Shown here: positions 14,654-30,013 of the stretch, in pieces
Layout: each line of letters opens with the position of its first letter
Numbering within the stretch: position 1 is the stretch's first letter
NCBI GenBank assembly: GCA_964395025.1
Contig: CAYMZP010000003.1
Location: 1-43,558, forward strand
Length of the DNA: 43,558 nt
Direction of reading: 5' to 3'
Origin: an uncultured Candidatus Saccharibacteria bacterium
GTDB taxonomy: Bacteria > Patescibacteriota > Minisyncoccia > Phycocordibacterales > Phycocordibacteraceae
The notes under the pieces: model-generated
Database searches by the model: none
Told to the model about the DNA's origin: nothing
What the model saw: only the letters and a program-made list of their open reading frames with translations
Made by a program: the position numbers and the translations under genes

Positions 14654-14665
14654 TCAAGCGGACAC

Positions 14666-14980: not shown

Positions 14981-14989
14981 CACTTTTCT

Positions 14990-15706
14990 ATGTTTATAGA
15001 CTACATATACCTTCCTATCTATAACCTCCTTACCTTTTTCGTGGATACGATTCCAGGAGGCGACCTCGGGCTTGCCGTGATAGCGGTAACGCTTGCGGTG
15101 CGGTTTGTCTTCCTGCCCATCTCCCTTTCTGCAGCACGTACACAAGCCGCGATGAAAGAAATTCAGCCTCAATTGACCGATATACGAGAAAAATATAAAA
15201 CCGACCCCCAGGCACAAGCAAAAGCAATGTTTGCGCTCTACAAGGAACACAAGGTGAAGCCGTTCTCAAGCATGCTCATGATGGTGCTTCAGATTCCTGT
15301 GCTCTTCGGACTCTTCTTTGTAACTCAGGATGTTGCGCGCTACGGCATTGATGCCTTGCTTCTCTATCCCTTTATTCCAGCACCAGAAACACTCTCCGTT
15401 CTTTTCTTTGGCATCCTTCCTGTCGCAGCTTCCTCAATAGTGCTCGCTCTTCTTGCAGGGGGAACGCAGTTCCTCTATGCACGACAAGCAGTTCCTATTC
15501 CCGAAAAGAAAGCGGGCGCAGGCATGCAAGAAGAGTTTGGTCGTGCCATGGCTATACAGGTGCGCTACCTATTCCCCGTTCTTATTGCGTTTTTTGCACT
15601 TGCATCAGGCGCAGTGGCCCTCTATTTCACCGCAACCAATATTTTTATGTTGGTGCAAGATATTGCTGTTAAAAGGACTAAAGCAAAAGTGGTTGCCACC
15701 GCCTAA
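14990..15706 (+). CDS. yidC: Membrane protein insertase YidC (short, Oxa1-like form)
   Basis: GLAVIAVTLAVRFVFLPIS...Q..M.EIQP......KYK.D.Q......M.LYKEHKVKPF....LMMVLQIPVLFGLF is the typical 60 kDa_IMP core. Five predicted TM segments. Confidence 0.9.
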   Translation: MFIDYIYLPIYNLLTFFVDTIPGGDLGLAVIAVTLAVRFVFLPISLSAARTQAAMKEIQPQLTDIREKYKTDPQAQAKAMFALYKEHKVKPFSSMLMMVLQIPVLFGLFFVTQDVARYGIDALLLYPFIPAPETLSVLFFGILPVAASSIVLALLAGGTQFLYARQAVPIPEKKAGAGMQEEFGRAMAIQVRYLFPVLIAFFALASGAVALYFTATNIFMLVQDIAVKRTKAKVVATA

Positions 15707-15714: not shown

Positions 15715-16911
15715 TCAAAGGTCGTAGAGCCAGAGAGACCCGTCTCGTTTGTTAGTAAATACCAGCACTCCACTTTCTTCGTCTATGGAAAGTGAAACGG
15801 CATCAATATCTGTTTCTGCAACTAAGAGCGGGTCCACGATGAGTGAAGCCACGCGCGATGTCAGGTCTATTTTCCAGAGACGGTCAGAGAATGATACTTG
15901 TCCTTGGTACCAGTCGTCAGGGAGTGTTCCAGAAAATGCACGAGGGACAGCACAGTAGATTGCCTCTTCGTTTACCGCGAAGACACACTTTTCCGAGAGT
16001 GTTGCGACAGGAAGTGTCACCGCCTCTCCCCCGCTTCGGGCAAAAAGAGTAAGCGTGAATGCCGTACCGGAGAGCGATGAGTAGAGCATACGACTCCCAG
16101 AAGGGCTTGAAAGCACAGAAAGCCCGCGTAGTGGTCCGATGAGTCGCGTAAGGGCATCTCCCTCAAGATAAAAGCCGTATCCAAGCGTACTTGCCGAAGC
16201 TTTAGTGGTTGCTACGTAAGAAGTGCCTGCTTGTTGCAAACGTAGTGACGTGAGAAGTGTAGAAAAACGTGTTTTTGCGCTTCCACCAAGAAGGGTTGCT
16301 TCCGTACCCAGCGTGCCGGTGGTTGAGGGACGTACGGTAAGGACTGTTGTAGAGCTCACAATTACATCTGAAAGTCCCGTTTCAAGCACATATCCATCAG
16401 TGCCGTCTGCAGGCAGTGCGTATGTTTCTATACGCTCCCCTGCTCCGTCGTTTGCAATGTAGCGAAGGAACGCACGCGAACCGTCTTTTGCCCACACTGC
16501 TTCGTAAATACTAGGAAGTGTGCGGTTTGTAAGACGCTCAAGCACGCGAGCGCGCACGAGGTAGCGGTACAGGTTTCCAGTTGCGCGGTCTACAAACCGA
16601 ATCTCTGTGTCAGTTTCAAGCGGGAGAGAAGAGCTTGCCGTATTTTCAATCTCAATACTGCGTGCGAGTATCCCCTGCGCCACCGGACCATCGGCAATTT
16701 TGAGAAGACGAGGTGCCACTTCTTCACCAACATTTTCTACAGGCACCCCCACGTCTGGAGGTATGTACGGCTCCGCGTCTCCACCTATACCAAAAGAACT
16801 ACCGCCATTATCCGTGCTTGACCCTAACGTTTGGCGAAGTGCAAACCAAATTGCTACACCAATTCCGGCGAAGATTGCGATAACGAAGATGATAGTGAGG
16901 ATGCGTCGCAT
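15715..16911 (-). CDS. Membrane-anchored extracytoplasmic beta-rich hypothetical protein (last gene of the T4SS-like operon)
   Basis: ORF 15715..16962. The start MRRILTIIFVIAIFAGIGVAIWFAL (TM anchor) lies 1 nt after the upstream stop. The rest is Ser/Thr/Gly-rich beta-strand-like sequence ending DGSLWLYDL. No family recognised. Confidence 0.6.
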   Translation of the reverse strand: MRRILTIIFVIAIFAGIGVAIWFALRQTLGSSTDNGGSSFGIGGDAEPYIPPDVGVPVENVGEEVAPRLLKIADGPVAQGILARSIEIENTASSSLPLETDTEIRFVDRATGNLYRYLVRARVLERLTNRTLPSIYEAVWAKDGSRAFLRYIANDGAGERIETYALPADGTDGYVLETGLSDVIVSSTTVLTVRPSTTGTLGTEATLLGGSAKTRFSTLLTSLRLQQAGTSYVATTKASASTLGYGFYLEGDALTRLIGPLRGLSVLSSPSGSRMLYSSLSGTAFTLTLFARSGGEAVTLPVATLSEKCVFAVNEEAIYCAVPRAFSGTLPDDWYQGQVSFSDRLWKIDLTSRVASLIVDPLLVAETDIDAVSLSIDEESGVLVFTNKRDGSLWLYDL

Positions 16912-16912
16912 G

Positions 16913-18142
16913 TTAGTTTTGTTCAACGCGCTGTGCACATACAGGTCCGCCAACCACCCCAAGCGTTATCGTTTCTCCGTTAGAGTAGTCAGCAACAGCA
17001 TCTATACAAGAACCGCTACCATCATCAAATGGGAGCAAAAGCCCCGCTTTTATTTTTTGCCCAATTTTTCCAGTAGAGTTGTATGCTGTTTCGCACATTT
17101 CCTCTGATGAGAAGAATTCGCTCATATCTTCTGTTGCGCCGAGCACACAGACTGTTCTTGCCATGGGAATAGATCCTTGAAAACCGCCGTACCGCTGAAA
17201 AGCAACCTGTAAACCTCCGCCCTCCATGTTTCCATCATCCAAATGCCATTTTGATTCTATAGAGCTACAACTACAGTAGTGGGTACCTGCTGGTCCCACA
17301 GAAACAACTTCGCAGCTCGAGCCCGAGAGATATGCATCCGCAAAACGTCCACAACATTGCTCATACCCATTCGCAAGCCGGTCACCTGCTTTCCAAGTAA
17401 TAACTGCGGAATCTACACCGCCCGTGGTACCTAGTTCTGGAAACGAATCGCAAGTGAGGTTTGAAAGAGGATTTGAGTCAGGGTCTGGTGTTTGAGTGAT
17501 GCCAGAACCATAGTTATCTCCAATGCGAAGGGAAAGAATGTCGGGGTTGATAATGCCAAATACGAGAGCTGGAGAGAGCACTAACAGAAGCCCAAGCACG
17601 GAAACAAGCATCAAATGACGTGCTTCGCGCTTCTCAACAACACCTGTATTCATTACGGCATACAGAATTCCGGCACGCACAAACTGAAGTACAGCGATAA
17701 CGGCTGCCGCCCCTACCGCAAGAACGTAGAGATAGTTAAAGAATCCAGAAAGACCATCTTCTGCGTTTATATTCTCAATCGCTGGAATGCTCGTAAGCGG
17801 TACAAACTCACTTCCCGTTGGGGTAGTAGCGTTTCCCGCTGGTGCGGTTGAGTTTTGGGGGAGCGTCGTCGGAGAAGGATTTTCTGTAGGCGTAGTTTCT
17901 TCCTCGTTTGAAGTGGGAGCACCACTTACTGTACATGTTTCTTGAAGAACACCTCCTGCCGAAACAGTTCTACATGAAGCGGTTCTACCATCAGCATGTG
18001 TACAGTTTCTTCCAAGACCCATGCCGGCATCTTGGCAGGTCCATCCATTTGTTGGAGTTACCTGTTCCGGAGGAATAGTCGTTTGTGCACTGACGGGAGT
18101 CATCAGCACAAGGAAGAGGAAAATAGAAAAAAGGTATTTCAT
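16913..18142 (-). CDS. Secreted Cys-rich protein containing a VirB2/T4SS-pilin-like hydrophobic hairpin
   Basis: ORF 16913..18226; start at the signal peptide MKYLFSIFLFLVLMTPVSAQ. The centre is FVPLTSIPAI...LSGFFNYLYVLAVGAAAVIAVLQFVRAGILYAV....REARHLMLVSVLGLLLVLSPALVFGIINP. This matches the two-helix pilin pattern seen in CPR/Gram-positive T4SS pilins (from memory Pfam T4SS_pilin PF18895). It is flanked by an N-terminal Cys-rich module, a Thr/Pro linker and a roughly 200 aa C-terminal Cys-rich domain. Confidence 0.65.
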   Translation of the reverse strand: MKYLFSIFLFLVLMTPVSAQTTIPPEQVTPTNGWTCQDAGMGLGRNCTHADGRTASCRTVSAGGVLQETCTVSGAPTSNEEETTPTENPSPTTLPQNSTAPAGNATTPTGSEFVPLTSIPAIENINAEDGLSGFFNYLYVLAVGAAAVIAVLQFVRAGILYAVMNTGVVEKREARHLMLVSVLGLLLVLSPALVFGIINPDILSLRIGDNYGSGITQTPDPDSNPLSNLTCDSFPELGTTGGVDSAVITWKAGDRLANGYEQCCGRFADAYLSGSSCEVVSVGPAGTHYCSCSSIESKWHLDDGNMEGGGLQVAFQRYGGFQGSIPMARTVCVLGATEDMSEFFSSEEMCETAYNSTGKIGQKIKAGLLLPFDDGSGSCIDAVADYSNGETITLGVVGGPVCAQRVEQN

Positions 18143-18143
18143 A

Positions 18144-19109
18144 TCAGAATCCAAATAAGCTACGGCGCTCAGTTCCGAATAAAAGAGTGAAGGCCGCTTC
18201 CGCTTGCTCGTTCGCATACGCGCCAACTGCTTCTATGGAAGCCCGCCCTCCCCCACTTACGGCGCGTACCGTGAGTGCATTTGTTGCACCTGCGGAGTCT
18301 CCATTTAGGTTCCAAGAAAAAGTGGGGCGGGAAGCAAAATGAAACCCTTCCACACGATACGTTTCTTCGTCACCGAGAAGGGTGCGAGTTCCAGAGAGTG
18401 CGTGTGCAAAGTTCACTCCAAGTAGTGGGTCGTTTTCATACACCAACACCTCCGGACTTGCCGCTGCAATAGTGACACTTGCGCGCGCAGAATGCGCACC
18501 ATCTACGGTACTTACTAGTACGGACACTTGTGCGTCACGGTAGCGCGGGGCGGCGGTCGCCGTAAGCACAGAACGACCAATACCAGACTCCGCCGAGAGG
18601 GTTTTGTCCCCTATCTGCCACGTGTAGGAAAGTTGCTCGGCTGGTATACGAGTGTTTGGTGCGGTGCGAATGTCTGGAATTGCAATAACACGAAGGCGCC
18701 CTTCTGGGGCAACGAGTGCAGCACCTTCGTACCAGAGAGGGGTTACAGACATAGGTTCCACCACAAGCGCAACATCCGTTGGCGTAATGGTCATTTCTTT
18801 TTCGTATGTTTCACCTCCTGAAACGGCGGTCATTCGTATTACGGTACTTGAGCCCGATGCGCCGAGCGTTGTTTGAATGGGCGCGCCACCGCTCCCCTCG
18901 TACAGTACGGTGCCATTTACTGAAACAGTGATGGTGCTTGCTGCTAAGTTAAGAAGGTTACTTTTTGGAGTAATGATAATCGTGTCATATGGACGAGGGG
19001 AGGCAGGTTGTATGGTGAATGAAATAGGTTCCACGTCTCTAAATTGTGCGTGTGCAGGCATTGCAAAAAAAATGCCAAACACTATGAGAAAAAGAGCCGT
19101 GCCTTGCAT
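18144..19109 (-). CDS. Secreted all-beta hypothetical protein (Ig-like repeats suspected)
   Basis: ORF 18144..19322; start at the signal peptide MQGTALFLIVFGIFFAMPAHAQ, with TATACT 6 nt upstream. Repetitive beta-strand-like segments of about 100 aa. Confidence 0.6.
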   Translation of the reverse strand: MQGTALFLIVFGIFFAMPAHAQFRDVEPISFTIQPASPRPYDTIIITPKSNLLNLAASTITVSVNGTVLYEGSGGAPIQTTLGASGSSTVIRMTAVSGGETYEKEMTITPTDVALVVEPMSVTPLWYEGAALVAPEGRLRVIAIPDIRTAPNTRIPAEQLSYTWQIGDKTLSAESGIGRSVLTATAAPRYRDAQVSVLVSTVDGAHSARASVTIAAASPEVLVYENDPLLGVNFAHALSGTRTLLGDEETYRVEGFHFASRPTFSWNLNGDSAGATNALTVRAVSGGGRASIEAVGAYANEQAEAAFTLLFGTERRSLFGF

Positions 19110-19158
19110 GACTCTAGTATACCGTGCAGAGTCAAAGTAGTTTGTATGGAGTGGGTAT

Positions 19159-19899
19159 TTATCCGTGCCACGGAGTTTCACTACGCGCACTTGGTGTCGA
19201 CTCCGCTTTTGGTATGGGAAGTGTTGTTGGATACGCTTGAGTCGGAAGTTTCTTTTTTGGGATAACGAGCGTATTTGGTGCCGGTCCCGCCTCTCCCCTT
19301 CCTTGGGCAACCTCTTCTTCATATATAGAGTCCTCTCTTTCAGAAAGAGCTGCTACCTGTAGCGCTTGTTCCTGTTCTCTCTGTCTAGAAATAAATTGTG
19401 CATCAAGCGCTTGTGCTCCCCGTTTTGCTTCTGCTTGTTTTTTGTATGCGCGCTCCGCGTCCTCAATACGTGAACTGAGGAATAGACGAATGGTAAACGC
19501 ACTAAGCATGGGTAGCGTTGAAAGGAATGGAACTGCCTCCACCACAAAACTACCTACAAGCATGCTCCCGTTTGCTACGGCTTTTTTGCCCGAAAGGACT
19601 TGTATACCAGAGGCAAAAAACACAGGCAGAATGATGGCAAAAGCAAAAAGCGTTGTCATAAAAGGAACAAAAAGCGCAATCATTGTTCCAATAATCGGAA
19701 TTGCATTAAAGAAAAGAAATACAGCTTGCAGTGCATCTGCTATGCCGGCTACCACCATAAGTAGCGCAAACATGCCGTTGCCCATACGGACAGGCCACCG
19801 CGGGAAAAGGATGGTTCCAAACGTGTTGTTCGTAGCACCTGACAAGCTTGTCGTTTGAGGTGGTGCGCTTCTACTCATTGGTCGCGCAGAGTCGCTCAT
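19159..19899 (-). CDS. Polytopic membrane protein (about 4 TM) with a charged C-terminal tail, hypothetical
   Basis: Hydrophobic segments MFALLMVVAGIADALQAVFLFF, IIGTMIALFVPFMTTLFAFAIILPVFFA, MLVGSFVVEAVPFL and LPMLSAFTIRLFL, followed by a coiled-coil-like tail. The start is 3 nt after the VirB4 stop. Confidence 0.7.
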   Translation of the reverse strand: MSDSARPMSRSAPPQTTSLSGATNNTFGTILFPRWPVRMGNGMFALLMVVAGIADALQAVFLFFNAIPIIGTMIALFVPFMTTLFAFAIILPVFFASGIQVLSGKKAVANGSMLVGSFVVEAVPFLSTLPMLSAFTIRLFLSSRIEDAERAYKKQAEAKRGAQALDAQFISRQREQEQALQVAALSEREDSIYEEEVAQGRGEAGPAPNTLVIPKKKLPTQAYPTTLPIPKAESTPSARSETPWHG

Positions 19900-19902
19900 A
19901 CG

Positions 19903-21750
19903 CTACCCTTCTTTCTCCATCGCAAGACGCTGTTTTTCTCTCTTGATTGCCATAAGTTGAGACGGGTCGGAGGTAATAATCTGGTCTTCAGTATAGGATG
20001 CAACGATTTTTATAGCGACATGCTTGAGGCCTGCAAAGAAAAGACCCTCCCCCACTCCTGACTCAAGCAAGAGGTATTTTTCTTCGTCCGTCAGACTAAA
20101 CACTTCCTTGAGCACATCTATCGTAGTTGGCGATTGCTTCAAGAGAAGTTGGATAGACGAGTTCGTGAGAATTGGTTTTCCGTACGGGGAGCGCAAGAAG
20201 TCTTCCACGTCTTGCGTAATGGTAGAAACACCCAAGTAGTACTTACGTCCGCGCTTGGCGAGGCTGTAGAGGAAAGAGGCAGTATCTTCCGACTTCATCA
20301 TCCACCATGCTTCGTCAATAATAAGCAGGCGCTTCTTCATGTTCTTGCGCACCGCATTCCAGATGAAGTGCGTCACGATATACATGGCAACCGGTTTCAG
20401 GTCGTCTTCCATATCGCGCACCGAAAAGACAATGAACTGTTTGTTGATGTCTACATTTGTGGGCTGGTTGATAAAGCCAGACCACGTTCCCTTCGTGTAT
20501 TTGCTGAGGCGTTGCACCAGAGAAGCAGAACCTTCCATACCGGAAAGTACATTCTCAAAGTCGGAAAGGAGCGGTGGTTCCATGCCGGTAAAGTCTGCAT
20601 CACCCGTGATGTCTTTTAGGGCATAGGTTTCTGTAACTGCGCGGTCTATGATGGCATCCTCTTCAGGAGTGAGTCCGCCAAGCATAATGCGGAAGAGTCC
20701 CACCAAGTTGATGATGTTGTTGCGTAAAATATCTGTCGGTTCCTCGTCTTCTTTCACTGCGGGAAGGTCAAACGGATTGATGTGGTGTTCGGAAGAAAGA
20801 GAAATATTAAAGAGGCGCCCCCCTGTTGCTTGTGCTAGGTATTCGTATTCGCGTTCGGGGTCAATCACAATCACTTCCGTGTCAAACATAAGAGAGCGCA
20901 GAATTTCCAGTTTGATTGCGTACGACTTTCCGGAACCGGACTTTGCAAACACTACGGAGTTGTAGTTTTCAAGCGAAAAGCGGTCAAAGAGAATAAGAGA
21001 TGCGTTGTGTCGGTTGATACCAAAGAGAATTCCTCGGTCGCTTGTGAGGTCAAAAGACACAAATGGGAAGATAGAAGAAAGCGGTGAAGAATTCATTTTT
21101 GAGTTCACCGCAAGTTCATCAAGTGCGAGAGGAAGTGTAGAGCGGAAGCCCTGTTCCTGCTGGTAAAGTGCCGGTTTGGTATAGATAAGACGCGAGTCTA
21201 GAATCCCGCGAATATCCCCCTCTATCTTGTCTAACTCTTCTTTAGTGGAACCGTAGATAGTGATGTAGAGCCCGACGTCAAACAGTCGTTCCTGTGCTTG
21301 CTGAAGTTGGTCACGAAGGTCCTCAAGGTCGCGGTAGGCAGTATCAAGCATCGGGTCACGCACAAGACCCTTCTCCTCTCGCTCCATAATCTGGCTTTGC
21401 ACCTCTGCGACCTTGCGTTGGAAATTGCGAAGTGCAATACCGGTATCTATCGGGTGTATGAAAATACCAACATCAAAGACGCGGGGCATGTTCACGATAG
21501 GGCTAAACCAACTTTCTGAGAGGTAGCGTGGGTAGGAGATGGTGTAGAACGTGCGCGCAAGCTTCTCACCAAGCTCAAGGTCGCGCGAGTTTACCTTGAG
21601 CGCAGGAGGCGCAATGGTGTCCGCGAGTGAAAGTGTTGCTTCCGCATATATTTCCTGAGGAAGTGGTGCAGATGGCGTGGAAGGCGCAGGAGGAACAACA
21701 CCTTTTGCAGTGGTATCTCTCTTCTGTTTTAGGAAATCAAGTAGAGCCAT
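19903..21750 (-). CDS. virB4: VirB4/TrbE/PrgJ-family type IV secretion ATPase
   Basis: Walker A VFAKSGSGKSYAIK, Walker B KKRLLIIDEAWWMM, and the motif GRKYYLGVSTITQDVEDF. The N-terminal region DTIAPPALKV...RTFYTISYPRYL is typical of Gram-positive-type VirB4. Confidence 0.9.
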   Translation of the reverse strand: MALLDFLKQKRDTTAKGVVPPAPSTPSAPLPQEIYAEATLSLADTIAPPALKVNSRDLELGEKLARTFYTISYPRYLSESWFSPIVNMPRVFDVGIFIHPIDTGIALRNFQRKVAEVQSQIMEREEKGLVRDPMLDTAYRDLEDLRDQLQQAQERLFDVGLYITIYGSTKEELDKIEGDIRGILDSRLIYTKPALYQQEQGFRSTLPLALDELAVNSKMNSSPLSSIFPFVSFDLTSDRGILFGINRHNASLILFDRFSLENYNSVVFAKSGSGKSYAIKLEILRSLMFDTEVIVIDPEREYEYLAQATGGRLFNISLSSEHHINPFDLPAVKEDEEPTDILRNNIINLVGLFRIMLGGLTPEEDAIIDRAVTETYALKDITGDADFTGMEPPLLSDFENVLSGMEGSASLVQRLSKYTKGTWSGFINQPTNVDINKQFIVFSVRDMEDDLKPVAMYIVTHFIWNAVRKNMKKRLLIIDEAWWMMKSEDTASFLYSLAKRGRKYYLGVSTITQDVEDFLRSPYGKPILTNSSIQLLLKQSPTTIDVLKEVFSLTDEEKYLLLESGVGEGLFFAGLKHVAIKIVASYTEDQIITSDPSQLMAIKREKQRLAMEKEG

Positions 21751-21753
21751 ACG

Positions 21754-22386
21754 CTATTTTTGTGTGAGTTTGATAGGTGTCTCAAGTTCTCCCAAGTTGA
21801 ACGAGCGATATAAGAGTTCAATAAGTTCTTCTGTACCAAGTGGTACGGCGCGTATGCCGGTGTTCATGAGACCAGAAGAAACAAGTGCCATACGTTGCTC
21901 AAGCTGAACACGGTATTGGTCAAATGTTTGTGTCATTCCCTGCCCTTGTGGTTGCTTCTTCCCGCCAAAGAGTGGAAGTCCTCCCCCGCCCCCAAGCGGA
22001 GCAGCGTCATACGGGACAACCACGTAGAAGAGCTTCGTCATAATATCTGCTCCCTCAATGAAGTTTCGCACGAATTGTGCGTATTCACGTACCTGCACGC
22101 GCATTAAATCCGTGGTCTGCGCAGCTTCACGCTCCTCAAGAGTTGCAAGGTACGGACGAATATCCATTTTGCGCGAGTGAATGACCACTTCCACAGAGAA
22201 ATCAAGCGTATTGAGGAATGTTTGGAAGCCACCAATAATAGCTTTTTGTTCGTCGGCTGACTTCAGAGCAAAGTTTGTAGAAGAACACATAAGCACGCTT
22301 CGGTAGCCACCGTTTTTGAGGACAATAACGCCATTTCTAACTTCTTTTACGGGCACGAACGATTGTGATGAGCGAGCGTCTTGCAT
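21754..22386 (-). CDS. VirB4 N-terminal-domain-like protein, separated from VirB4 by an in-frame TAG
   Basis: VPVKEVRNGVIVLKNGGYRSVLMCSSTNFALKSADEQKAIIGGFQTFLNTLDFSVEVVIHSRKMD matches the start of Gram-positive conjugative VirB4 ATPases (..dGii....g.y.k.l....iNf.l.s..eq..i...f..flnsl). The junction reads CAA AAA TAG CGT ATG, in the same frame as the ATPase ORF. Confidence 0.6.
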   Translation of the reverse strand: MQDARSSQSFVPVKEVRNGVIVLKNGGYRSVLMCSSTNFALKSADEQKAIIGGFQTFLNTLDFSVEVVIHSRKMDIRPYLATLEEREAAQTTDLMRVQVREYAQFVRNFIEGADIMTKLFYVVVPYDAAPLGGGGGLPLFGGKKQPQGQGMTQTFDQYRVQLEQRMALVSSGLMNTGIRAVPLGTEELIELLYRSFNLGELETPIKLTQK

Positions 22387-22391
22387 ACGTA

Positions 22392-22814
22392 TTAGGTAGG
22401 TTCTTCGCCTTTACCGGTGTCGCGCACATCAAGCGACCACGCAAGCTCTTGTAGTTTTTTCTCTGAGAGCCCCAGTTTTTGTGCGGGAGCTTCCTTTTCA
22501 GGAACCACTTTTACCGCTTCAGGAAGTGTCTCCCCCTTTTCTTTTTTCCATAGGTAGAGGCGTTTGCCGACGTAGTAAGAAAAGCCAGCCTCAAGCATTT
22601 CAGCAAATGGTTTGTTGTTCACCTTGTAGAACGCAAGTGCGAGAGAAAGCGCCACGACAGGAATGGAAAGAAGAATCGCAAACATGAGCGGAATCGTGAA
22701 TATCAAAATAGCTACGAGACCAATACCTCCCGCAACGTAAATGAATTGCTTGAGTGTGAAAGGTCCAAAAATCTTATCTTCCACTTCTATAAACTGCGGA
22801 ACTTGATAATCCAT
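22392..22814 (-). CDS. PrgI/VirB3-like small membrane protein
   Basis: MDYQVPQFIEVEDKIFGPFTLKQFIYVAGGIGLVAILIF followed by a second TM segment. This is the PrgI-family pattern (from memory PF12666). Lies directly upstream of the VirB4 genes. TATACT is 7 nt upstream of the ATG. Confidence 0.7.
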   Translation of the reverse strand: MDYQVPQFIEVEDKIFGPFTLKQFIYVAGGIGLVAILIFTIPLMFAILLSIPVVALSLALAFYKVNNKPFAEMLEAGFSYYVGKRLYLWKKEKGETLPEAVKVVPEKEAPAQKLGLSEKKLQELAWSLDVRDTGKGEEPT

Positions 22815-22884
22815 TGATCAAAGTATAACGCGAAAACGCCCCAAGTAAGTTATTGGAGCGCTTTCTATACGGGGAAATTCGTTT

Positions 22885-23103
22885 TTAGGACTGTTTTTGT
22901 TTCTCTGCCAACTTCTCCAATGCTTCAATATACGCTGCGTCAGCTGCATTTGTTGCTTCAAGATATGCTTTTGCAAGTGAAACGAGCATCTCCCCCTCCT
23001 CTTCAGGAGATAGTGGAGCATCTACAATCTCTTTAATGAGACTACGAGCCTCATCAACCTTTCCTTCGGCAAAGAGTGTCTTTAGTTTTTCAGTGGTGTC
23101 CAT
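22885..23103 (-). CDS. Small acidic helical hypothetical protein (72 aa)
   Basis: MDTTEKLKTLFAEGKVDEARSLIKEIV... has no signal peptide or TM segment. Tightly follows the upstream coiled-coil gene. Confidence 0.55.
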   Translation of the reverse strand: MDTTEKLKTLFAEGKVDEARSLIKEIVDAPLSPEEEGEMLVSLAKAYLEATNAADAAYIEALEKLAEKQKQS

Positions 23104-23114
23104 AGATGATGTTT

Positions 23115-24308
23115 TTATGTACCGGCGTCGTTAAGTTCTTCAAAATACTCCTCAGCATCAGAAGCAAGCGCTTCAAGCATTGCACGCTTCATTAGGGCAC
23201 CCTTCTTTCCTGCACGAACTTCTGCATCAAGCGCTTCCATTCGCTCTTCAAAGACTTCGCGCACAAATTCTTGCGCATCTTCGCGTTCTTTTGAACCAAT
23301 AGGGTTCATCATCACGAACTCTTTAAGGTTTTTAACAAACGAAGAAAAGCGCGTACTCTCCTTGATGTTGTTAATGGCCTTTTTTACGCCCTCGCGAGCA
23401 CGTTTTTCTGCGAGATTGTCTAGTTTATCTGCCACTTCTTCTGGAGCTAAGTCGTCTTCATTTTCTGCTGCCTCAGCAAACTCAGCATATTTTTTATTTA
23501 GTTCACTCATTTTTTCGATGGAGCCAAAGCCACGAGATTTTGCTGTAAGCATTTTTTCCATCTTCTTTTCTACTTTCTCTCGCACCATCTTGGCAATGGT
23601 GGTTTCTTGAAGAAGTCCTTTTGTAATTTCATCCCGAGCTTCTGACTCTTTTGCGCGCTCTTCTTCTAGTTCACTGGTTGCATTGTCAGCCGCCTCCTGA
23701 GCGGTTCGTAACTGCGCTTCAGCCGCAACCTTATCGCGCTGAGCCTTGTTCAAGGCTTCTACATTTGCACGATGGTTTGGGCCGAACAACCTGCTCATTA
23801 TTCCGGCCTTTTTTACCTGCGCCTCGTAGTGCCTTTTTTGTGTTTCAGCGTGGTGTATAGCTAGTTGAAGATCAGGCGCTTTCCCTCTTTCAGTATCAAC
23901 ACGTGATTCCAGTTCACGAATACGTTCGCGCTGAGTACGGAATGTTTCAAGCTGTTCTCCAAGCGCATCTATCGCATCAGGATTTTCTCGCATTTCCTTA
24001 CGCAGGTATGCATGAATAACTTCAGTGCCCTCCTTCCCCAGTTTTATGCCGAGTGATTCTTGAATGTGGTCGGGCCACATTTTCTTCAGTCCAGATTCTA
24101 CGGATTCAGTTTTTTTGAAGAGTTCGTACTCTTCTCGCATAGCATCGTCGCTATAATCAGCACTCGCGCGCTCATCTTCCGAGAGTGATGCAGTCGTCTC
24201 GTCCACGTACTTCTTAAACTTTCTGTCATTTAACCAAGGCCTATCTGCATGTCTTAGTGTCGGGCCTTCGGGAGTGGTCATAGTATGAGAAATTATGTAC
24301 CTATCCAT
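23115..24308 (-). CDS. Soluble charged coiled-coil hypothetical protein (397 aa)
   Basis: Rich in E/K/R/A heptad-like sequence, with no TM segment or signal peptide. A GGAGGGGG Shine-Dalgarno sequence lies about 6 nt upstream of the ATG. Confidence 0.65.
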   Translation of the reverse strand: MDRYIISHTMTTPEGPTLRHADRPWLNDRKFKKYVDETTASLSEDERASADYSDDAMREEYELFKKTESVESGLKKMWPDHIQESLGIKLGKEGTEVIHAYLRKEMRENPDAIDALGEQLETFRTQRERIRELESRVDTERGKAPDLQLAIHHAETQKRHYEAQVKKAGIMSRLFGPNHRANVEALNKAQRDKVAAEAQLRTAQEAADNATSELEEERAKESEARDEITKGLLQETTIAKMVREKVEKKMEKMLTAKSRGFGSIEKMSELNKKYAEFAEAAENEDDLAPEEVADKLDNLAEKRAREGVKKAINNIKESTRFSSFVKNLKEFVMMNPIGSKEREDAQEFVREVFEERMEALDAEVRAGKKGALMKRAMLEALASDAEEYFEELNDAGT

Positions 24309-24344
24309 GATATACCCCCTCCATACAAAGACAAACAGGAAAAA

Positions 24345-25142
24345 CTACTCTATGGGCTCTCGATACGGATCTATGCCGTACTTTTTTAGGTCAGCCTGTA
24401 AGGACGAGGCAGATGGTTCTTGTGCAGTAGGTTTTTGAGTGGTAGTGGGCGGAAGCGGGGGTGACTGAGGGTGGTTTTCCCGCTCTGGCACGGGTACCCT
24501 TTGCTGAGGTGCAGGCGTACCACCGTGTTGCATAGCTTCTATATCTCCCGCCATCGTGCGTGCATGCGGTTCTTCAAGGGGTTTTGTGGGCTGTGCACTG
24601 AAAATAGCTTTTACTTCAGGAACAGGCGTAGGTCGAGTAGGGGGCGCCGGAGCATGTTCTGAAGGTGCATTTGTGGGCAAGTTTGCATGGAAGGTAGCGA
24701 GAGGAGAAGAAGCGGGTGCTGGTACCTGTACCGGTGGTGTAGATGTAGCCACATATGCAGGCGGAGGCGGAGGTGGCGTGCGAGGAGTTTCTGTAGAAAT
24801 GATTACTGGCAAGTCATGTGCAGGCTCCCCTCCCCCCTTTGCAATAAGAGGTTCAAAGACACCATTACGCACTTCTTCAATAATGTCCGGAATAAGAATT
24901 TCCCCCACCCCTGCTTCTGTTGCCAGATTTTGTGGAAGTTCGTTAGGAGAAGACACTCCCAGCAATACCATGAGGATTTCATTTGAGACATCAGTTCGCA
25001 TATCAGGAGTGAAGCCAAACTTCGTGGAAAGTTTTTCAGTGAATGCAGAAAATTCTCCAGACTCTATAAACTCCTGTATGAAAGGAGGAGTATTCTGGAA
25101 TGTTGCGAGAAGCTGGTTCTCTTCTGTGGTGAGTGTGTCCAT
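24345..25142 (-). CDS. Hypothetical protein with a helical N-domain and Pro-rich C-terminal half
   Basis: N-terminus TFQNTPPFIQEFIESGEFSAFTEKLSTKFGF...SNEILMVLLGVSSPNELPQNL, then PPPPPPAYVATSTPPVQVPAPASSP... No signal peptide. Confidence 0.6.
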   Translation of the reverse strand: MDTLTTEENQLLATFQNTPPFIQEFIESGEFSAFTEKLSTKFGFTPDMRTDVSNEILMVLLGVSSPNELPQNLATEAGVGEILIPDIIEEVRNGVFEPLIAKGGGEPAHDLPVIISTETPRTPPPPPPAYVATSTPPVQVPAPASSPLATFHANLPTNAPSEHAPAPPTRPTPVPEVKAIFSAQPTKPLEEPHARTMAGDIEAMQHGGTPAPQQRVPVPERENHPQSPPLPPTTTQKPTAQEPSASSLQADLKKYGIDPYREPIE

Positions 25143-25145
25143 ACG

Positions 25146-27560
25146 TTAGTGAGCAGGTGTGTGACTACCTCCTCCGCCACCGCTAGAGTCTTTTTTCGGC
25201 TCAGGCTCGTGGTGCTCTTCTGCGTGGTCGTCATGCCCACCTTTTTTATGAAGGAGATGCTCAAGTTTGTGCGCCAACTCTTCTTCTTCGGACATTCCTG
25301 CTTTCTTTCTAATGCCTTTAGCCATCGTACGGAAAGCTGTGGCATTAAGTGGAGCTGAGATAGGACCAATTCTTGCTCCTTCAAGCATACGAGCAACTTT
25401 TTCAAAACGTGCAGCCGCTTGATCAAGGGCGTAATCAGATTTAAGCATAGCTGCCCCACTCTTCATCTCGGAAGCCCTATCTTTATTTCGTTGCTTCTCT
25501 CTTTTGTTGAAGTCAGCTTCTAGTGTTGCCCGCTCTGCTTCAGCTGCCTCTTTCTGGGCTTGTGCAGCATCAAGCTGTTTCATTGCAGCGGCAATATTTG
25601 CACGAGTTGCTGCTTCATCTCGTACTCGACCAGTCGAAAGATCAGTCTGCATTTTCTCAATACTTTCAGTAAGTTTGCCAATTTGTGTCGTTGCTTCCGC
25701 CATTTGTGCAGTATTTTTTGCAAGTGCCTCACTTTGTGCAAGATCTTCTGTGGCCGCCTTTCCTCCCTGACCTTTGTATTTCTGAAGAATTTGGTCATCA
25801 GCACTAAGGCGGTTAAGTTGGCGTTCCTTAAGTTTTTCTTTAAGATCTTCTTTCTCTTTTTCAATTTCTGTTGCTCTTGCGGTATGGGTTGCAGCCTGTG
25901 CCTTTAGTTTAGATTCCAAATCGGTTTCCCCGCGCGCGGCTGCATCAGACGCTGCCGTATTGAGGTTAAATGCTTTTGCCTCTTCCAGTTCTTTTGCTTT
26001 TTCAGCGGCAGCAATTTGTTGCTTAAGAGGATTATCGCGCGTATCTCGAGCTTTCTTGACCTCCTCTGCGTCCTTACTTGCACGTTCAGCAATCTTCTTC
26101 AGTTCACCCGGACGACCATCCTTACTAAAGTCTCCAACCTTACCAAGAGATACGCCCGCAACCTTAATGTTGCCCTTAGCTCCACGAATATCAAAGGTGC
26201 GCTTCGCGCCAAGGTCGAGACCTTTTGCTACTAAGTCTCCAGCAAGAGTATTCCCATAACGTGAACGCACCACGGTTGCCATGCGGTTTAAGGGTCTACC
26301 CAGTGTGTAACGACCAGCACGAGCAAAAAGGCCCGCAGTGCTAAATCCGATGGTCTTCCCTGCTGTACTTACTGCCCAGTCAGAGCCAATAATGCCAAAC
26401 TGTTTTGCTGCGAGAAGCGAACCAAAAAGAAAACCAACAGTTAAGAGGTATATCAAAAGACCTCCGAAATCTTTATTTAGAGTTGATTGAAACAGTGCAT
26501 CAAAAATATTCGGCGCTTTTCCATTTACAGAAAGTGCGATTGCTACTCCTTCGGCCACCTTAAGGCTTACAAAAATAAGGAGAAGCAGGGTTGGCGCGAA
26601 GAGTGCGTTGTTTATGAGTGTTTTCCACCATTCATTCGCCACTTTGTTGAGCTGGGGTATGACCATCCCCGCAAAGCCTATCGGCGCGGTGATCATAAGA
26701 AATGCGAGAACGATGGCACGCGAGAGGAGCATCAGGGCACCCATCGCAAAGACTATGGTGGTAACGGTGACAAAGAGTGTGCCGAGTGTTGCCGCTATAA
26801 TGCGCTGAAGTTTCTCGCCGTTTCCGAAAAAAGTCGCAACACTACCAATGGGGTCCACGAGAGAGGAAATGCCGGTGAGGGCCATTACTTTGTTTGTGAT
26901 AGCGCCTGAAGTACAGTCCTCACCCACCGCACCGCACTCGTATGCTTGTTCAAAAATAGTAGAGGCTACCGCGTTTGTAGCATCAATAATTGCTTCTGCA
27001 GCAAAAAGGCTGAAGTTAAGAAGTACGGCAAAAATAACAAGGCGCGGAAGAGTCTTCCCCACACTGTAGTGCCCCACATTCAGTATGGTCTGGATACCAA
27101 TTGCCACAAAGCCAAATACCAACAGGATATTGCCTATATCACGCATCATCGCCCACCCCACGAGAAGTCCAGCCGAATTGCCAAAGTAGACGGCAAACTT
27201 AAAGACAAAAGTGCTGATAGCAAATTCAAATGCGGCCGCCGCAATACTAAGCAGTACGTTGGCAAGAGCCAAGAACACGTATGTGATGACTCCAAGGGGC
27301 ACCAACGCTGTGTCTGCGGCACATTGGCCAGGGTTGGTGATACATCCCCAGGTAGAATCCCAAATGTTTTTATTTTTTCCTTCAGAAAATGAGGAGCCGT
27401 TAGAAGCAGTGGTACTTTCCGCAGGTGTCCCCCCTTCAGGAGGGACAGTTGCTTCCTGTGCATGGGTCGTAGACACCTCACCTCCCAATGGCAGAGACGT
27501 AAAGACAGCACCGAGCACGAGAAGACCAATTCCCAACACCGTCAGACGGAAGCACTGCAT
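25146..27560 (-). CDS. VirB6/TrbL-like polytopic membrane protein with a long C-terminal coiled coil and His-rich tail
   Basis: ORF 25146..27587. I prefer the ATG at 27560 (MQCFRLTVLGIGLLVLGAVFTSL signal-like), 4 nt after the upstream stop. It has about 7-8 TM segments in the first roughly 450 aa, then about 300 aa of A/E/K/Q coiled coil. It ends HKKGGHDDHAEEHHEPEPKKDSSGGGGGSHTPAH. Confidence 0.6.
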   Translation of the reverse strand: MQCFRLTVLGIGLLVLGAVFTSLPLGGEVSTTHAQEATVPPEGGTPAESTTASNGSSFSEGKNKNIWDSTWGCITNPGQCAADTALVPLGVITYVFLALANVLLSIAAAAFEFAISTFVFKFAVYFGNSAGLLVGWAMMRDIGNILLVFGFVAIGIQTILNVGHYSVGKTLPRLVIFAVLLNFSLFAAEAIIDATNAVASTIFEQAYECGAVGEDCTSGAITNKVMALTGISSLVDPIGSVATFFGNGEKLQRIIAATLGTLFVTVTTIVFAMGALMLLSRAIVLAFLMITAPIGFAGMVIPQLNKVANEWWKTLINNALFAPTLLLLIFVSLKVAEGVAIALSVNGKAPNIFDALFQSTLNKDFGGLLIYLLTVGFLFGSLLAAKQFGIIGSDWAVSTAGKTIGFSTAGLFARAGRYTLGRPLNRMATVVRSRYGNTLAGDLVAKGLDLGAKRTFDIRGAKGNIKVAGVSLGKVGDFSKDGRPGELKKIAERASKDAEEVKKARDTRDNPLKQQIAAAEKAKELEEAKAFNLNTAASDAAARGETDLESKLKAQAATHTARATEIEKEKEDLKEKLKERQLNRLSADDQILQKYKGQGGKAATEDLAQSEALAKNTAQMAEATTQIGKLTESIEKMQTDLSTGRVRDEAATRANIAAAMKQLDAAQAQKEAAEAERATLEADFNKREKQRNKDRASEMKSGAAMLKSDYALDQAAARFEKVARMLEGARIGPISAPLNATAFRTMAKGIRKKAGMSEEEELAHKLEHLLHKKGGHDDHAEEHHEPEPKKDSSGGGGGSHTPAH

Positions 27561-27564
27561 AGCT

Positions 27565-29052
27565 TTAAAGGGTGTTAAAAAGTTCATTGATGCGACAAGA
27601 AGCAGCGTACCGCTCCATTTTTGCTACATACGACTCTTCCCCTGTGGAAGTTTGGTCACCACTTGCGTGTTCGCTCGCTTCACGGAACTCAGTAATACTT
27701 GGTACTACACCGCTTGTGCGGAACGTTTCGTACTCAGCGACGATTGCTTCAAAACTCTCGCCTCCCTCTTGAGAGAGTTCTACTCGTTGTTCAAATTCTG
27801 CGTATTTTGAAATGGATAGATTTACCCGTTCAATTTCTGCATCTGCACGGGCAATCAAGTTTTCTGCTTCCCGTCTTCCTGCTTCCGCGTCAGGCATACC
27901 ACGGCAGTCTGCCAAATTATCTCGTGCCGCCACAGCTGCAGTGCGGATTATGGTCCAGTCACGGCGGTACTGTGCAAGCTGAGGTCGTTGACTTTCAAAA
28001 CTTGTGGAGAGCGCGTTTGCCACGGCGGTCGTCGGTGGTTGTGCCTGCGGGCGTTCATAGCGCGCAGCACCGGCAAGTCCCCCACTGTCTCCCCCAAATA
28101 GCGTGTCAGTGAGAAGCTGACCAAAAAATCCAACAATCACTTCGTTCATTTCATCTGCGTTTACTGCAAGGTCTACGCCGACATCAACAGCATACTTATT
28201 TACCGTCTGCGCTACCACAGACCCTGGTGTTTCGATGGCGTATGAAAGACAGTCATCTTGGTCGTGAAGTGCAACACTCGGGTCCTGATTAAAGGCAGTA
28301 GCGTCAGCATAGTTTGTGCAGTCCCCTTTCCACGAAAGGAAGCCTTGGCCCCAATTCAACTGTTGCACATGCTCATTTGCCGCCTGAGACACTGCCTGTG
28401 CGAGCTGGTCTTCCGCAAGGTACTGAGCTCCCAATGGATTGTTTCCAGGACTTTGCCATGCAGCAAGCCAGCCAGAAACACCACACGCGCTAAAGTCTCC
28501 TTGAAGGAACGCTTCGTGGTCAGGACATACTTCGGAAAGAGTGTATTTTGAACGATTTGCATACGCTTGTGGTCCCGTAGCTCGGTAGTAGTTGTCTTGT
28601 ACTGCCTGAGCCACACGGCTACTAAACGGTGTCTGGAGCGCCAAGTTAGTACGTAGTTGATACGTGAAACTATTGGCAATAGTATCCCCCATCCGAAGGA
28701 AACTTCGCTCAAGGTCTGTTTCAAAAGCAGGAGAACCTTGAAAACCATTTGAGGCCCAGTTCGCCATACTTTGCACCATAGTTTGAAGTGCCATATCAAC
28801 GGCAAACTTTGCAAGGCTGTCAAAAACGTACTCTTTTACGACAACCTGATTATCAAGAGCGGTCTGTACTCCCTGTATGCCCCAGTCAGAAATCATTTGA
28901 GCAAATGCTGCGGGGTCAAAGACAATGTCGGCCGCGCCAAGAAACGCATGTGCTCTCTGAGGGATGGCACTAAAAAGAGAAACCGCGAAGAAAACCACAA
29001 ACACACCTGAGGTTATGGAGCGGACAAGAGTTGATAGAGGTGAGCGCTTCAT
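27565..29052 (-). CDS. Secreted hypothetical protein (495 aa)
   Basis: Signal/anchor MKRSPLSTLVRSITSGVFVVFFAVSLFSAIPQRAHA. The mature N-terminus FLGAADIVFDPAAFAQMI is reminiscent of the TrbJ/VirB5 start (V.D.an.aQ). The C-terminus is helical and acidic. Confidence 0.6.
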   Translation of the reverse strand: MKRSPLSTLVRSITSGVFVVFFAVSLFSAIPQRAHAFLGAADIVFDPAAFAQMISDWGIQGVQTALDNQVVVKEYVFDSLAKFAVDMALQTMVQSMANWASNGFQGSPAFETDLERSFLRMGDTIANSFTYQLRTNLALQTPFSSRVAQAVQDNYYRATGPQAYANRSKYTLSEVCPDHEAFLQGDFSACGVSGWLAAWQSPGNNPLGAQYLAEDQLAQAVSQAANEHVQQLNWGQGFLSWKGDCTNYADATAFNQDPSVALHDQDDCLSYAIETPGSVVAQTVNKYAVDVGVDLAVNADEMNEVIVGFFGQLLTDTLFGGDSGGLAGAARYERPQAQPPTTAVANALSTSFESQRPQLAQYRRDWTIIRTAAVAARDNLADCRGMPDAEAGRREAENLIARADAEIERVNLSISKYAEFEQRVELSQEGGESFEAIVAEYETFRTSGVVPSITEFREASEHASGDQTSTGEESYVAKMERYAASCRINELFNTL

Positions 29053-29053
29053 A

Positions 29054-30013
29054 TTAGTTTATGTGCGTATCAAGGGTCTGCCCTAGCTTTGAAAGCGCAT
29101 CAGAATATGCAGACCACGCATCAAGGTACGAAAGAAGACCAAGGAGGCCACGAAGCGGGTCTTCTGGCATGGACGCCATGTCTTCTACTACCGCACCAAC
29201 GCCTGCATATGCGTTTGCGAAATCCAAGTGAGGTCCAGAAACCGTAGAAGGCACAGAGATTTGCATAATGGCCTCTGCGGACTCTGCATACGCTTGCGCA
29301 AGCTCTCTAATGCGTGCCATGGAGTGTTCCGTTTCTATGCCCATTACATATTCACCAAAGTAGTCGTAGACATTCTTTTCGTCGTGGGAAGCACTATGTT
29401 CCGTAAGTACGCGGTCCATGGTCGTGACGTACGTAAACAGTGCGTCCTCTCCTCCCCCTACCACCGTAAGGTCAGAAAGTGTGAAGCGCGCACCTCGCTC
29501 TTCTGCTAGCTCTTTTGAAGCAGACGCTATAAATGCAGTCATGTCTTCAGGGGAAAGAGGCATGCCCTCGTTAAGGCGTAGATAATTTTCTAGGAACTTT
29601 TTTCCAAAACGGTCAGTGAGGGTTTCTGGTCCGGCGTCTATGCCAGGCACTTCTATACTTCGTTCGGGCGTTTCTTCACTCGTAAAAGTAGGGGTCACCT
29701 TGCCGGAAGCCACTGCTTCAGCATCCGTCATGTTCGGGTCTACTGAACGCGGGTTTCTCGGGTCTGTGCCATAGAGTGCTTCTTGCCAATCCGGGAGACC
29801 GTCAGCGTCTGTGTCTTTCATCGCATAGGCACGGAGAATGTCCTCAGTTGAAAGTGCTTGCGCAGTCCGTACAGAAGGACTTGAAAGCCAGAATGCACCA
29901 GCCACCATCACCCCTCCTAAGAGAAGCGCGGCCACAATGCTCTTCGTACGGGTAGAAACGTGCATAGTTCTTAGAAAAATACTAGCACGCAGGTGTCTGG
30001 GCGCAGTGCGCAT
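29054..30013 (-). CDS. Membrane-anchored hypothetical protein with a thrombospondin type 3-like Ca-binding motif
   Basis: TM SIVAALLLGGVMVAGAFWL, then DTDADGLPDWQEALYGTDPRNP (D.D.DGL.D..E...GTDP). The start is ambiguous: ATG 30013 (TATAAA 7 nt upstream) or ATG 29965 (MHVSTRTK). Confidence 0.6.
   Translation of the reverse strand: MRTAPRHLRASIFLRTMHVSTRTKSIVAALLLGGVMVAGAFWLSSPSVRTAQALSTEDILRAYAMKDTDADGLPDWQEALYGTDPRNPRSVDPNMTDAEAVASGKVTPTFTSEETPERSIEVPGIDAGPETLTDRFGKKFLENYLRLNEGMPLSPEDMTAFIASASKELAEERGARFTLSDLTVVGGGEDALFTYVTTMDRVLTEHSASHDEKNVYDYFGEYVMGIETEHSMARIRELAQAYAESAEAIMQISVPSTVSGPHLDFANAYAGVGAVVEDMASMPEDPLRGLLGLLSYLDAWSAYSDALSKLGQTLDTHIN

Follow-up and report, generated by a model that had tools for sequence, protein, structure and literature searches.

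Beside the replication genes of a candidate phyla radiation (CPR) bacterium lies a block of thirteen genes built around a VirB4 ATPase, and the question it raises is what such a type IV secretion system (T4SS) is for. The block occupies positions 15715 to 30013, minus strand, of contig CAYMZP010000003.1, whose 43,558 nucleotides (nt) were analysed at full length and are here called the window. We favour, with a probability of about 0.72, the reading that the locus represents, for Paceibacteria-type genomes, the T4SS that Patescibacteria (CPR) carry on the chromosome, a VirB4-driven pilus or host-interface apparatus that does not serve DNA conjugation. This T4SS appears to descend from the conjugation machinery of monoderms, the MPF-FATA class of mating-pair formation (MPF) systems, with conjugation lost. 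The locus is nothing new; the same architecture and origin-adjacent position are already in the literature (PMC12102498), as is the Saccharibacteria version (PMC10633639, PMC7427843). The window therefore holds one more typical member of a published system and no new kind of system. What is added here is incremental: fold classes for several partner proteins, the finding that the first gene product is probably not a VirB8, a TrbJ-like motif in the second, and a very high conservation of VirB4.

Running from 30013 down to 15715, thirteen tightly packed open reading frames (ORFs), numbered g01 to g13, share the minus strand and form the VirB4-centred locus, as had been proposed; the total of 13 depends on counting an ORF of 72 amino acids (aa) at 22885-23103. 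The starts of g11 (19109), g12 (18142) and g13 (16911) were reset to the methionine that precedes the signal peptide or transmembrane (TM) anchor. With these refined starts the eight junctions listed earlier are all reproduced, with gaps of 1-5 nt (29052/29054, 27560/27565, 25142/25146, 22386/22392, 21750/21754, 19899/19903, 18142/18144 and 16911/16913). Pfam and NCBIfam scans covered the window ORFs of at least 80 aa, several of which have no family match. For comparison, a scan of one genome per species gave 584 VirB4 relatives, and the related loci discussed below are the best 80 of these 584, chosen by VirB4 similarity and taken with flanks of ±10 kb.

Motor genes

VirB4 and PrgI are the hallmark calls with direct support from hidden Markov models (HMMs). 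The VirB4 ATPase g09 (19903..21750, minus strand) carries the central and C-terminal P-loop domains. It matches the NCBIfam equivalog for the CD1110-family VirB4 (NF045971) with an E-value of 1.7e-113 and 380 bits (cutoff 325), across profile positions 182-733 of 752, and among Pfam models P-loop_TraG (2.5e-26) and AAA_10. Its translation contains a Walker A motif, GSGKS, and a Walker B motif, LLIIDEAW.

The preceding gene, g08 (21754..22386, minus strand), matches the NCBIfam models VirB4_plasma (2.3e-7, profile positions 102-218) and CD1110 VirB4 (1.9e-5, profile positions 5-118). These matches cover the N-terminal 100-200 residues of the VirB4 models, which is exactly the part absent from g09. 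Judged by this coverage, g08 is the predicted VirB4 N-terminal domain, split off as a separate protein and known in the literature as TrsD. At the junction of the two genes the window reads TAG-CGT-ATG in frame, and readthrough, a pseudogene and an alternative genetic code were considered as explanations and rejected. The split is universal, with g08 directly upstream of VirB4 in 80/80 loci, and the gaps between the genes measure 1-12 nt and fall in all three frames. Because, in addition, TGA, TAG and TAA are all normal stops in the window, g08 and g09 are a genuine two-gene arrangement.

As for the membrane anchor of the motor, g07 (22392..22814, minus strand) is a PrgI/VirB3-like protein with two TM segments. 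It matches PF12666 (PrgI) at 2e-9 and 38.3 bits, above the gathering score (cutoff 27), and is found in 76/80 loci with a median identity of 50%.

Candidate channel protein and pilin

The largest membrane protein of the locus, g03 (25146..27587, minus strand, with an alternative start at 27560), is a putative extended VirB6/TrbL-like polytopic protein with about 8-9 TM segments and a long, charged, His-rich coiled-coil tail at the C-terminus. Its own match, to the CD3337/EF1877 mobilome membrane protein, is weak (1.7e-3). Its syntenic orthologues are more informative, with 6/39 matching TrbL/VirB6 (PF04610, best 1.9e-7) and 1 matching TrbL_4 (9e-7).

A similar situation is seen with g12 (16913..18142, minus strand), the candidate VirB2/TrbC-like pilin hairpin. 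This protein of 409 aa has a signal peptide, TM segments at 131-149 and 174-192, and Cys-rich ectodomains (14 Cys) on both sides of the hairpin. No Pfam model matches g12 itself at E<=0.01. Among its orthologues, 34/39 match T4SS_pilin (PF18895, best 3e-11) and 19 match TrbC/VirB2 (PF04956). An HMM built from the orthologous hairpins matches g12 and no other ORF of the window (5e-29), g12 being among the sequences from which it was built. The hairpin and the signal peptide are present, and the protein falls outside the mature size of a small pilin (~70-120 aa). The cysteines of g12 lie in an additional domain at the N-terminus (4 Cys) and in one of ~200 aa at the C-terminus; the orthologues are shorter (median 268 aa) and retain the Cys-patterned C-terminal extension.

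All four T4SS hallmarks named in the original prediction are upheld: the VirB4 ATPase and the PrgI/VirB3-like protein by their own matches, the VirB6/TrbL-like protein and the VirB2-like pilin hairpin by way of orthologues. The 4-TM protein g10 was also considered as a second pilin and rejected, since it fails the hairpin HMM and 0/46 of its positional homologues match any pilin family.

Mobility functions and inheritance

The absence of conjugation machinery and of a mobile-element context had been claimed for the locus, and both hold. The record consists of this one 43.5 kb contig, in which the scans with Pfam and NCBIfam give no relaxase, VirD4/TcpA, VirB11, VirB8/9/10, VirB7 or ICE-type integrase (ICE, integrative and conjugative element). 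The sole recombinase in the window, at 42253-43167, is XerC/D-type, a housekeeping type and not an ICE integrase. A tRNA scan of the window found none, direct repeats flanking the locus do not exceed chance, and the GC content of the block (0.45-0.52) is the same as outside it, with no shift across the locus boundaries. From the lack of tRNA, significant direct repeats and GC shift it follows that there are no recognisable ICE boundaries.

The best 80 VirB4 relatives share 73-85% identity and all come from Patescibacteria or uncultured-bacterium metagenome-assembled genomes, mostly labelled Paceibacterota, Kaiserbacteria or Parcubacteria. This agrees with the earlier suggestion of a bacterium with a small genome and possibly an episymbiotic life; the source belongs to the CPR and is probably an episymbiont. 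The order uvrD-ksgA-[g01...g13]-yidC-rnpA-dnaA-dnaN recurs in those related loci whose contigs reach far enough to show it, and the synteny comparison covers the whole block and both flanks. Because this synteny extends across Paceibacteria-type genomes of 80 species, the block appears to be vertically inherited and not an ICE.

Across the 80 genomes, which were picked by VirB4 similarity, the median identity of VirB4 is 77%, compared with 56% for DnaA, 50% for KsgA, 50% for UvrD, 41% for YidC and 38% for DnaN. Secretion ATPases are not usually conserved to this degree, and the figure would suit a gene with an essential role. Taken from these comparisons, the locus is an apparently old, vertically inherited and strongly constrained chromosomal system under strong purifying selection.

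Partner proteins

Nine of the thirteen products had been called unclassifiable, which proves overstated in view of g08 (TrsD), g11 (Ig-like class), g13 (beta-propeller class) and g02 (TrbJ-like N-terminal motif). A signal peptide or TM anchor together with extracytoplasmic domains is found in g01, g02, g11, g12 and g13.

The second gene, g02 (27565..29052, minus strand), encodes a protein of 495 aa with a Sec signal peptide and conserved Cys. It has no match in Pfam, NCBIfam or PDB sequences, and an N-terminal fragment of an orthologue likewise finds nothing in PDB. In several orthologues the mature chain begins with (V/I)xDPxNLVQN. The strict form of this motif, D[PAVL]xNL[VI]Q[NT] right after the signal peptide, occurs in 6/47 members of the g02 family and in 0/3082 background ORFs, which were drawn from the same loci and amount to 697 kb of protein. 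A tblastn search with one motif-bearing orthologue against 72,556 plasmids gave matches of which 8/8 are the N-terminus of TrbJ, each of them weak (21 aa, E ~0.4). TrbJ is the VirB5 homologue of P-type systems. One g02 homologue matches DUF4141 (1.5e-5), a domain known from conjugative transposons of Bacteroides, where the gene for the protein that carries it lies between traG (VirB4) and traJ. By position, g02 lies directly upstream of the TrbL-like g03, and in the trb operon trbJ is just upstream of trbL, with one small ORF between them. An hhalign comparison of the g02 family with TrbJ aligns 21 columns, the N-terminal motif only, and is not significant (probability 1%); in the window protein the motif is degenerate (DIVFDPAAFAQ). 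We therefore treat a VirB5/TrbJ-like identity of g02 as a lead only.

Some g02 orthologues reach 600-800 aa (L044:3159-5492, L046:3159-5558, L048:3444-5678 and other long ones). Within the orthologue set as a whole, two members match Bact_surface_Ig-like and two match F5/8 type C (discoidin, carbohydrate-binding). Such insertions are consistent with a surface-exposed, lineage-variable role in host binding.

Structure prediction of the partners, which had been proposed as a check, gave a confident model for g01 and a poor one for g02. The AlphaFold2 (AF2) model of g02 has a predicted local distance difference test (pLDDT) score of 57 (20-sequence alignment), and its Foldseek matches are meaningless. 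The model of g01 (29054..30013, minus strand; start alternatively at 29965) has a pLDDT of 89 (105-sequence alignment) and consists entirely of helices. The protein has an N-terminal TM anchor and one Ca-binding TSP3 motif, DTDADGLPDWQE (TSP3_bac, E 6e-4); in a pooled scan that included 26 members of its family, TSP3_bac gave 17 matches. Its best Foldseek matches in PDB are four-helix-bundle ligand-binding domains of chemoreceptors (6s1a, E 0.16, probability 0.98), and its 107 homologues in the protein database are all unnamed or TSP3-labelled. A weak SnoaL_3 match had made g01 a candidate for the missing VirB8-like NTF2 protein. This candidate was rejected on the confident all-helical model and the exclusively four-helix-bundle matches, and g01 is modelled as a membrane-anchored extracytoplasmic helical bundle and not a VirB8. 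Family profiles of g01, g02 and g03 gave nothing useful against PDB sequences.

Towards the end of the operon, g11 (18144..19109, minus strand) is a predicted Sec-secreted protein of tandem immunoglobulin (Ig)-like beta-sandwich domains, found in 74-77/80 loci. It has weak Cadherin-like and PKD matches of its own; its orthologues match BiPBP_C (x11), Cadherin-like (x3), Ig_3 and PKD_6, and its profile finds the Ig domains of phage Hoc among PDB sequences (2.9e-4). On these matches we assign it to the Ig-like fold class. The last gene, g13 (15715..16911, minus strand), found in 68/80 loci, encodes an extracytoplasmic protein with a TM anchor at the N-terminus and an invariant Cys pair, C309 and C320. 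Its orthologues match PD40 (x2) and DPPIV_N (x1), its profile matches the TolB propeller at E 0.032, and it is probably a beta-propeller.

The 4-TM membrane protein g10 (19159..19899, minus strand) has a charged C-terminal tail and is recognised by position, with no family match in Pfam or NCBIfam for itself or its positional homologues. Its slot holds an ORF with 2-6 TM segments in 52 loci, with D55, P124 and P130 near-invariant. Many tails of the family end in '...AA' (EAA, RAA, TAA, QAA), for example L004:11833-12270, L008:11827-12282, L012:11822-12205, L043:8295-8798 and L053:4154-4564, whereas the window protein ends in PWHG.

Three further products are predicted to be cytoplasmic and are poorly conserved or not conserved. 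The first, g04 (24345..25142, minus strand), is Pro-rich and has no match in Pfam or NCBIfam; its N-terminal domain of ~100 aa is conserved in 18-28 loci, and a Pro-rich tail (17% Pro) follows. The acidic, charged coiled-coil protein g05 (23115..24308, minus strand) has a weak match to TraP of IncI1 (6e-3); neither tblastn nor blastp finds a counterpart in the 80 loci, its sequence not being conserved. The 72-aa helical, TPR-like g06 (22885..23103, minus strand) has a sub-threshold match to TPR_16 (1.2e-3) and no sequence conservation among the 80 loci.

The extracytoplasmic proteins contain conserved Cys pairs. The total is 22 Cys in g02, g12 and g13 taken together, against 1 in the six cytoplasmic proteins g04-g09, a distribution that agrees with the predicted topology.

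Proposed mechanism and alternatives

The inner-membrane motor and platform parts are TrsD (g08) with g09, the PrgI/VirB3 anchor (g07) and the extended VirB6/TrbL channel protein (g03). In the mechanism that we propose, VirB4 (TrsD plus g09) would dock on PrgI and the extended VirB6 and, driven by ATP, pull the VirB2-like pilin out of the membrane into which Sec has inserted it. Pilus biogenesis is an established role of VirB4 that is independent of a type IV coupling protein (T4CP). The extracted pilin would then polymerise into a short pilus or conduit that passes through the thin wall of a monoderm cell, and a nearby M23/LysM hydrolase may help in crossing it. Recognition and retention of the host cell would fall to a tip or base made up of g01, g02 (possibly VirB5-like), g11, g13 and the Cys-rich g12 domains. 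As a whole, the structure would serve host contact and the exchange of proteins or small molecules.

Several points weigh against this reading. A VirD4-like coupling protein may lie elsewhere in the genome, as is common in Patescibacteria (PMC12102498), in which case substrate translocation, even of DNA, would be possible. The VirB6-like and VirB2-like proteins of the window fall below HMM thresholds and were assigned via orthologues. A simple fibre model meets its main internal objection in g12, which is unusually large (409 aa; orthologue median 268). The bulky Cys-rich domains that flank its hairpin make it atypical for a polymerising VirB2, and it may be a membrane component and not a fibre subunit. 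The evidence for calling g02 VirB5-like is a short motif. Lastly, the function given here to a Paceibacteria-type locus is predicted from its genes.

A more specific version, which we regard as tentative and rather unlikely, is a hybrid machine. It would combine a monoderm-type motor (PrgI-TrsD-VirB4) with a pilus module of diderm type, where a genuine VirB5/TrbJ homologue, g02, acts with g03 and g12, and with a lineage-specific tip for host recognition made of g11, g13, g01 and the g12 ectodomains. If true, no VirB5-type adaptor would have been recognised in a monoderm T4SS before g02, and the arrangement would offer a concrete picture of the way in which CPR cells connect to their hosts.

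The alternatives to a pilus or host-interface apparatus rank in the order of Ptl-like secretion, DNA uptake and an ICE remnant, all of them below it. Bordetella Ptl exports pertussis toxin without a coupling protein. By analogy, a VirB4/VirB6 platform with no pilus role could, in a second step, expel Sec-exported proteins (g02 and g11 of the operon, or others encoded elsewhere) that act as effectors or toxins on the surface of the host cell or inside it. The locus has no T4CP and encodes several proteins with Sec signals, and McLean et al. 2020 (PMC7427843) drew the Ptl analogy for Saccharibacteria. However, the co-encoded secreted proteins look structural and keep fixed positions (g11 in 74-77/80 loci, g13 in 68/80), and their Ig-like, propeller and helical-bundle folds come without enzymatic or toxin domains. 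What was called the 'secreted array' in Saccharibacteria is now interpreted as a set of VirB2-like pilins (PMC12102498, PMC10633639), and in a monoderm a second step would find no outer membrane to cross. We consider Ptl-like secretion improbable.

Still less probable is a DNA-uptake machine, ComB-like or Ced-like, that imports host or environmental DNA for nucleotides or recombination. The original prediction included it, pointing to comM, pilB, ruvB and ruvC in the same window, and of its inferences this is the least favoured; the host-contact part, which is essentially the published hypothesis, stands. VirB4 has a weak match to the archaeal DNA importer CedB (1.5e-10), but this lies far below the cutoff of that model and is far weaker than the matches to conjugative VirB4 families. 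In the ABY1 class, T4SS loci co-localise with comF, recG and radA (PMC12102498). On the other hand, the window shows no ComB-type core of VirB7, VirB9 and VirB10. Within ±10 kb flanks pilB is matched in 1/80 loci, ruvC in 3/80 and comM in 0/80, although the copies of the window lie 8-15 kb outside the operon, mostly beyond such flanks; we regard these genes as ordinary housekeeping context. In S. epibionticum, as PMC12857230 summarises, competence depends on type IV pili (T4P) and ComEC; cells deleted for comEC lose it and survive, whereas the T4SS is essential.

An ordinary ICE, or the decaying remnant of one lying near oriC by chance, is effectively refuted. In its favour, the nearest families of VirB4, PrgI and the VirB6-like protein come from ICEs and plasmids of Firmicutes (CD1110, PrgI, CD3337/EF1877). 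Against it, neither a relaxase, a T4CP or an ICE-type integrase nor att repeats or a tRNA target were found in the window, the GC of the block matches the flanks, all 13 ORFs are intact, block and flanks are syntenic across species, and VirB4 is more conserved than DnaA, a picture opposite to decay or recent insertion.

Few envelope machines are conserved in Patescibacteria, a huge radiation of mostly uncultured bacteria. The T4SS is among them, and it is essential for epibiotic growth where tested. The window shows how strongly the Paceibacteria version is conserved, with VirB4 above DnaA across 80 related genomes. It also yields testable assignments for the partner genes g01, g02, g11, g12 and g13, which are natural candidates for host recognition.

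Neighbouring genes and junctions

Upstream of the operon, ksgA (rRNA adenine dimethylase; 30044..30823, minus strand; RrnaAD, 8.9e-44) lies 30 nt before g01 and forms the conserved upstream boundary; it is preceded by a CAAX protease gene and uvrD/pcrA. The origin-region core (11684..15706) abuts the 3' end of the operon, in the same order as in related loci. It comprises dnaN (11684-12784, minus strand), dnaA (13001-14398, minus strand), rpmH (14510-14653, plus strand), rnpA (14666-14980, plus strand) and yidC (14990-15706, plus strand). The context of dnaA, rpmH, rnpA and yidC, as it had been read earlier, is confirmed by Pfam and, for rpmH, by a classic L34 sequence read directly. The operon and yidC are convergent and meet across an 8-nt gap (window 15706-15715). 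If oriC is the dnaA-rpmH intergenic region (14398-14510), the operon, ksgA and uvrD are transcribed toward dnaA and ~18 kb of genes run head-on to the rightward fork; the GC skew of the short window does not place oriC.

An M23 peptidase gene with LysM (33882..34772, plus strand; Peptidase_M23 1.3e-31, LysM 1.6e-16) is found 3.9 kb and four genes upstream of the operon, outside it and on the opposite strand. The linkage is visible in one related locus only (L006), the fetched flanks being too short elsewhere to show it. This peptidoglycan hydrolase is a plausible VirB1-like helper, standing in for the missing VirB1/PrgK wall hydrolase.

Four junctions (21750-21756, 19899-19905, 25142-25148 and 22386-22394) have in common the form stop-(TA)CGT-ATG, with no Shine-Dalgarno: TAGCGTATG, TAACGTATG and TAATACGTATG. 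This form suggests coupling of the genes by termination and reinitiation. Scans for promoters gave sites no commoner than in shuffles, and no terminator-like match marked a clear operon boundary.

An 18-nt inverted repeat, TTTGTATGGAGKGGGTAT, of which 17/18 positions are complementary, has its arms at 19141-19158 and 24312-24329, in two of the few intergenic gaps within the operon. One arm lies over the Shine-Dalgarno-like region just upstream of g05 and the other directly after the stop of g10, so that g05-g10, which form the PrgI-TrsD-VirB4 module, lie between the two. The repeat may pair at long range in the RNA, mark an inversion site or be due to chance; a conserved invertible segment was rejected, as related loci have no equivalent. 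Elsewhere in the window, and unrelated to the T4SS, there are two tandem M14 zinc-carboxypeptidase paralogues (40205-41101 and 41105-42178, minus strand) and an NYN-domain (RNase-like) protein (38935-39465, minus strand).

Comparison with known systems

One comparison is with P-type (MPF-T) systems. With the module trbE-trbJ-trbL and the VirB2/VirB5 pilus the locus shares a secreted protein bearing (V/I)xDPxNLVQN directly before a TrbL/VirB6-like gene, as well as a TrbC/VirB2-like pilin. It differs in that the similarity of g02 to TrbJ covers ~20 residues only, g02 is twice as long, the window motif is degenerate and VirB7/9/10/11 are absent.

A second comparison is with the conjugative T4SSs of the MPF-FATA class (pCF10 Prg/Pcf, Tn916, pCW3 Tcp, CTn2 CD1110). 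Shared features are the CD1110 VirB4 above its cutoff, PrgI, a VirB6 analogue of CD3337/EF1877 type and the absence of an outer-membrane core. By comparison, within its 43.5 kb the window has no relaxase, no T4CP (VirD4/TcpA), no hydrolase of PrgK/TcpG type inside the operon and no mobile-element context. Nor was a VirB8-like NTF2 protein (PrgL/TcpC/Orf13) found by the family scans or in the model of g01, the sole product with a weak SnoaL-like match, which is helical; g13 gives propeller signals. The window does have a VirB2-like pilin, which Gram-positive conjugation systems, to our knowledge, lack.

For Saccharibacteria, VirB4, VirB6, VirB2 and a role in host interaction were described by McLean et al. 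2020 (PMC7427843). Transposon sequencing by Wang et al. 2023 (PMC10633639) found the counterpart, SEML1_0006-0019 with its pilins, essential for epibiotic growth; the coupling protein and relaxase were noted as missing and a role at the host interface was proposed. A 2025 review (PMC12857230) counts these systems as the first essential T4SS and speculates about a pilus conduit, and our literature search found no later structural or functional resolution. The T4SS of Southlakia epibionticum ML1 (SEML1_0006-0019) and the window locus are alike in their origin-adjacent position (from the low locus-tag numbers of the former), a PrgI-family protein, a giant TrbL/VirB6-like membrane protein, PF18895 pilins and the lack of a recognisable coupling protein or relaxase. 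In contrast to the single pilin-hairpin gene of the window, with its large Cys-rich ectodomains, S. epibionticum has six small divergent pilins in an array; it also has an NTF2-like (VirB8-like) protein. No NTF2-like protein was found in the window, where g01 was tested and is helical, and Ig-like and propeller partners are added.

The closest match is the Paceibacteria arrangement in the Patescibacteria survey of Quiñonero-Coronel et al. 2025 (PMC12102498). That study detected 2,474 virB4 genes and a monophyletic VirB4 clade related to MPF-FATA. TrsD was the most abundant associated component, and PrgI/VirB3, VirB6 and VirB2-like pilins lay near virB4. Relaxases were almost absent and T4CP homologues mostly far from virB4; a VirB5/TrbJ-type component was not reported for the clade. 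In Paceibacteria, M23/LysM-type VirB1 candidates were associated with virB4 within 20 coding sequences, and the loci of Paceibacteria and Microgenomatia adjoin dnaA, dnaN, rnpA, ksgA and rpmH. The window shares the MPF-FATA-type VirB4 with adjacent TrsD, the PrgI/VirB3, VirB6 and VirB2-like pilin, the lack of a nearby relaxase or T4CP, the adjoining dnaA, dnaN, rnpA, rpmH and ksgA, and the M23/LysM hydrolase within 20 coding sequences. In VirB4 affinity, TrsD, PrgI/VirB6, pilin and genomic context alike, all five of the features compared, it has the predicted make-up of a Paceibacteria-type member of the Patescibacteria chromosomal T4SS. Nothing essential differs from the published system, to which the window adds the fold classes of g01, g11 and g13 and the TrbJ/VirB5-like motif in g02.

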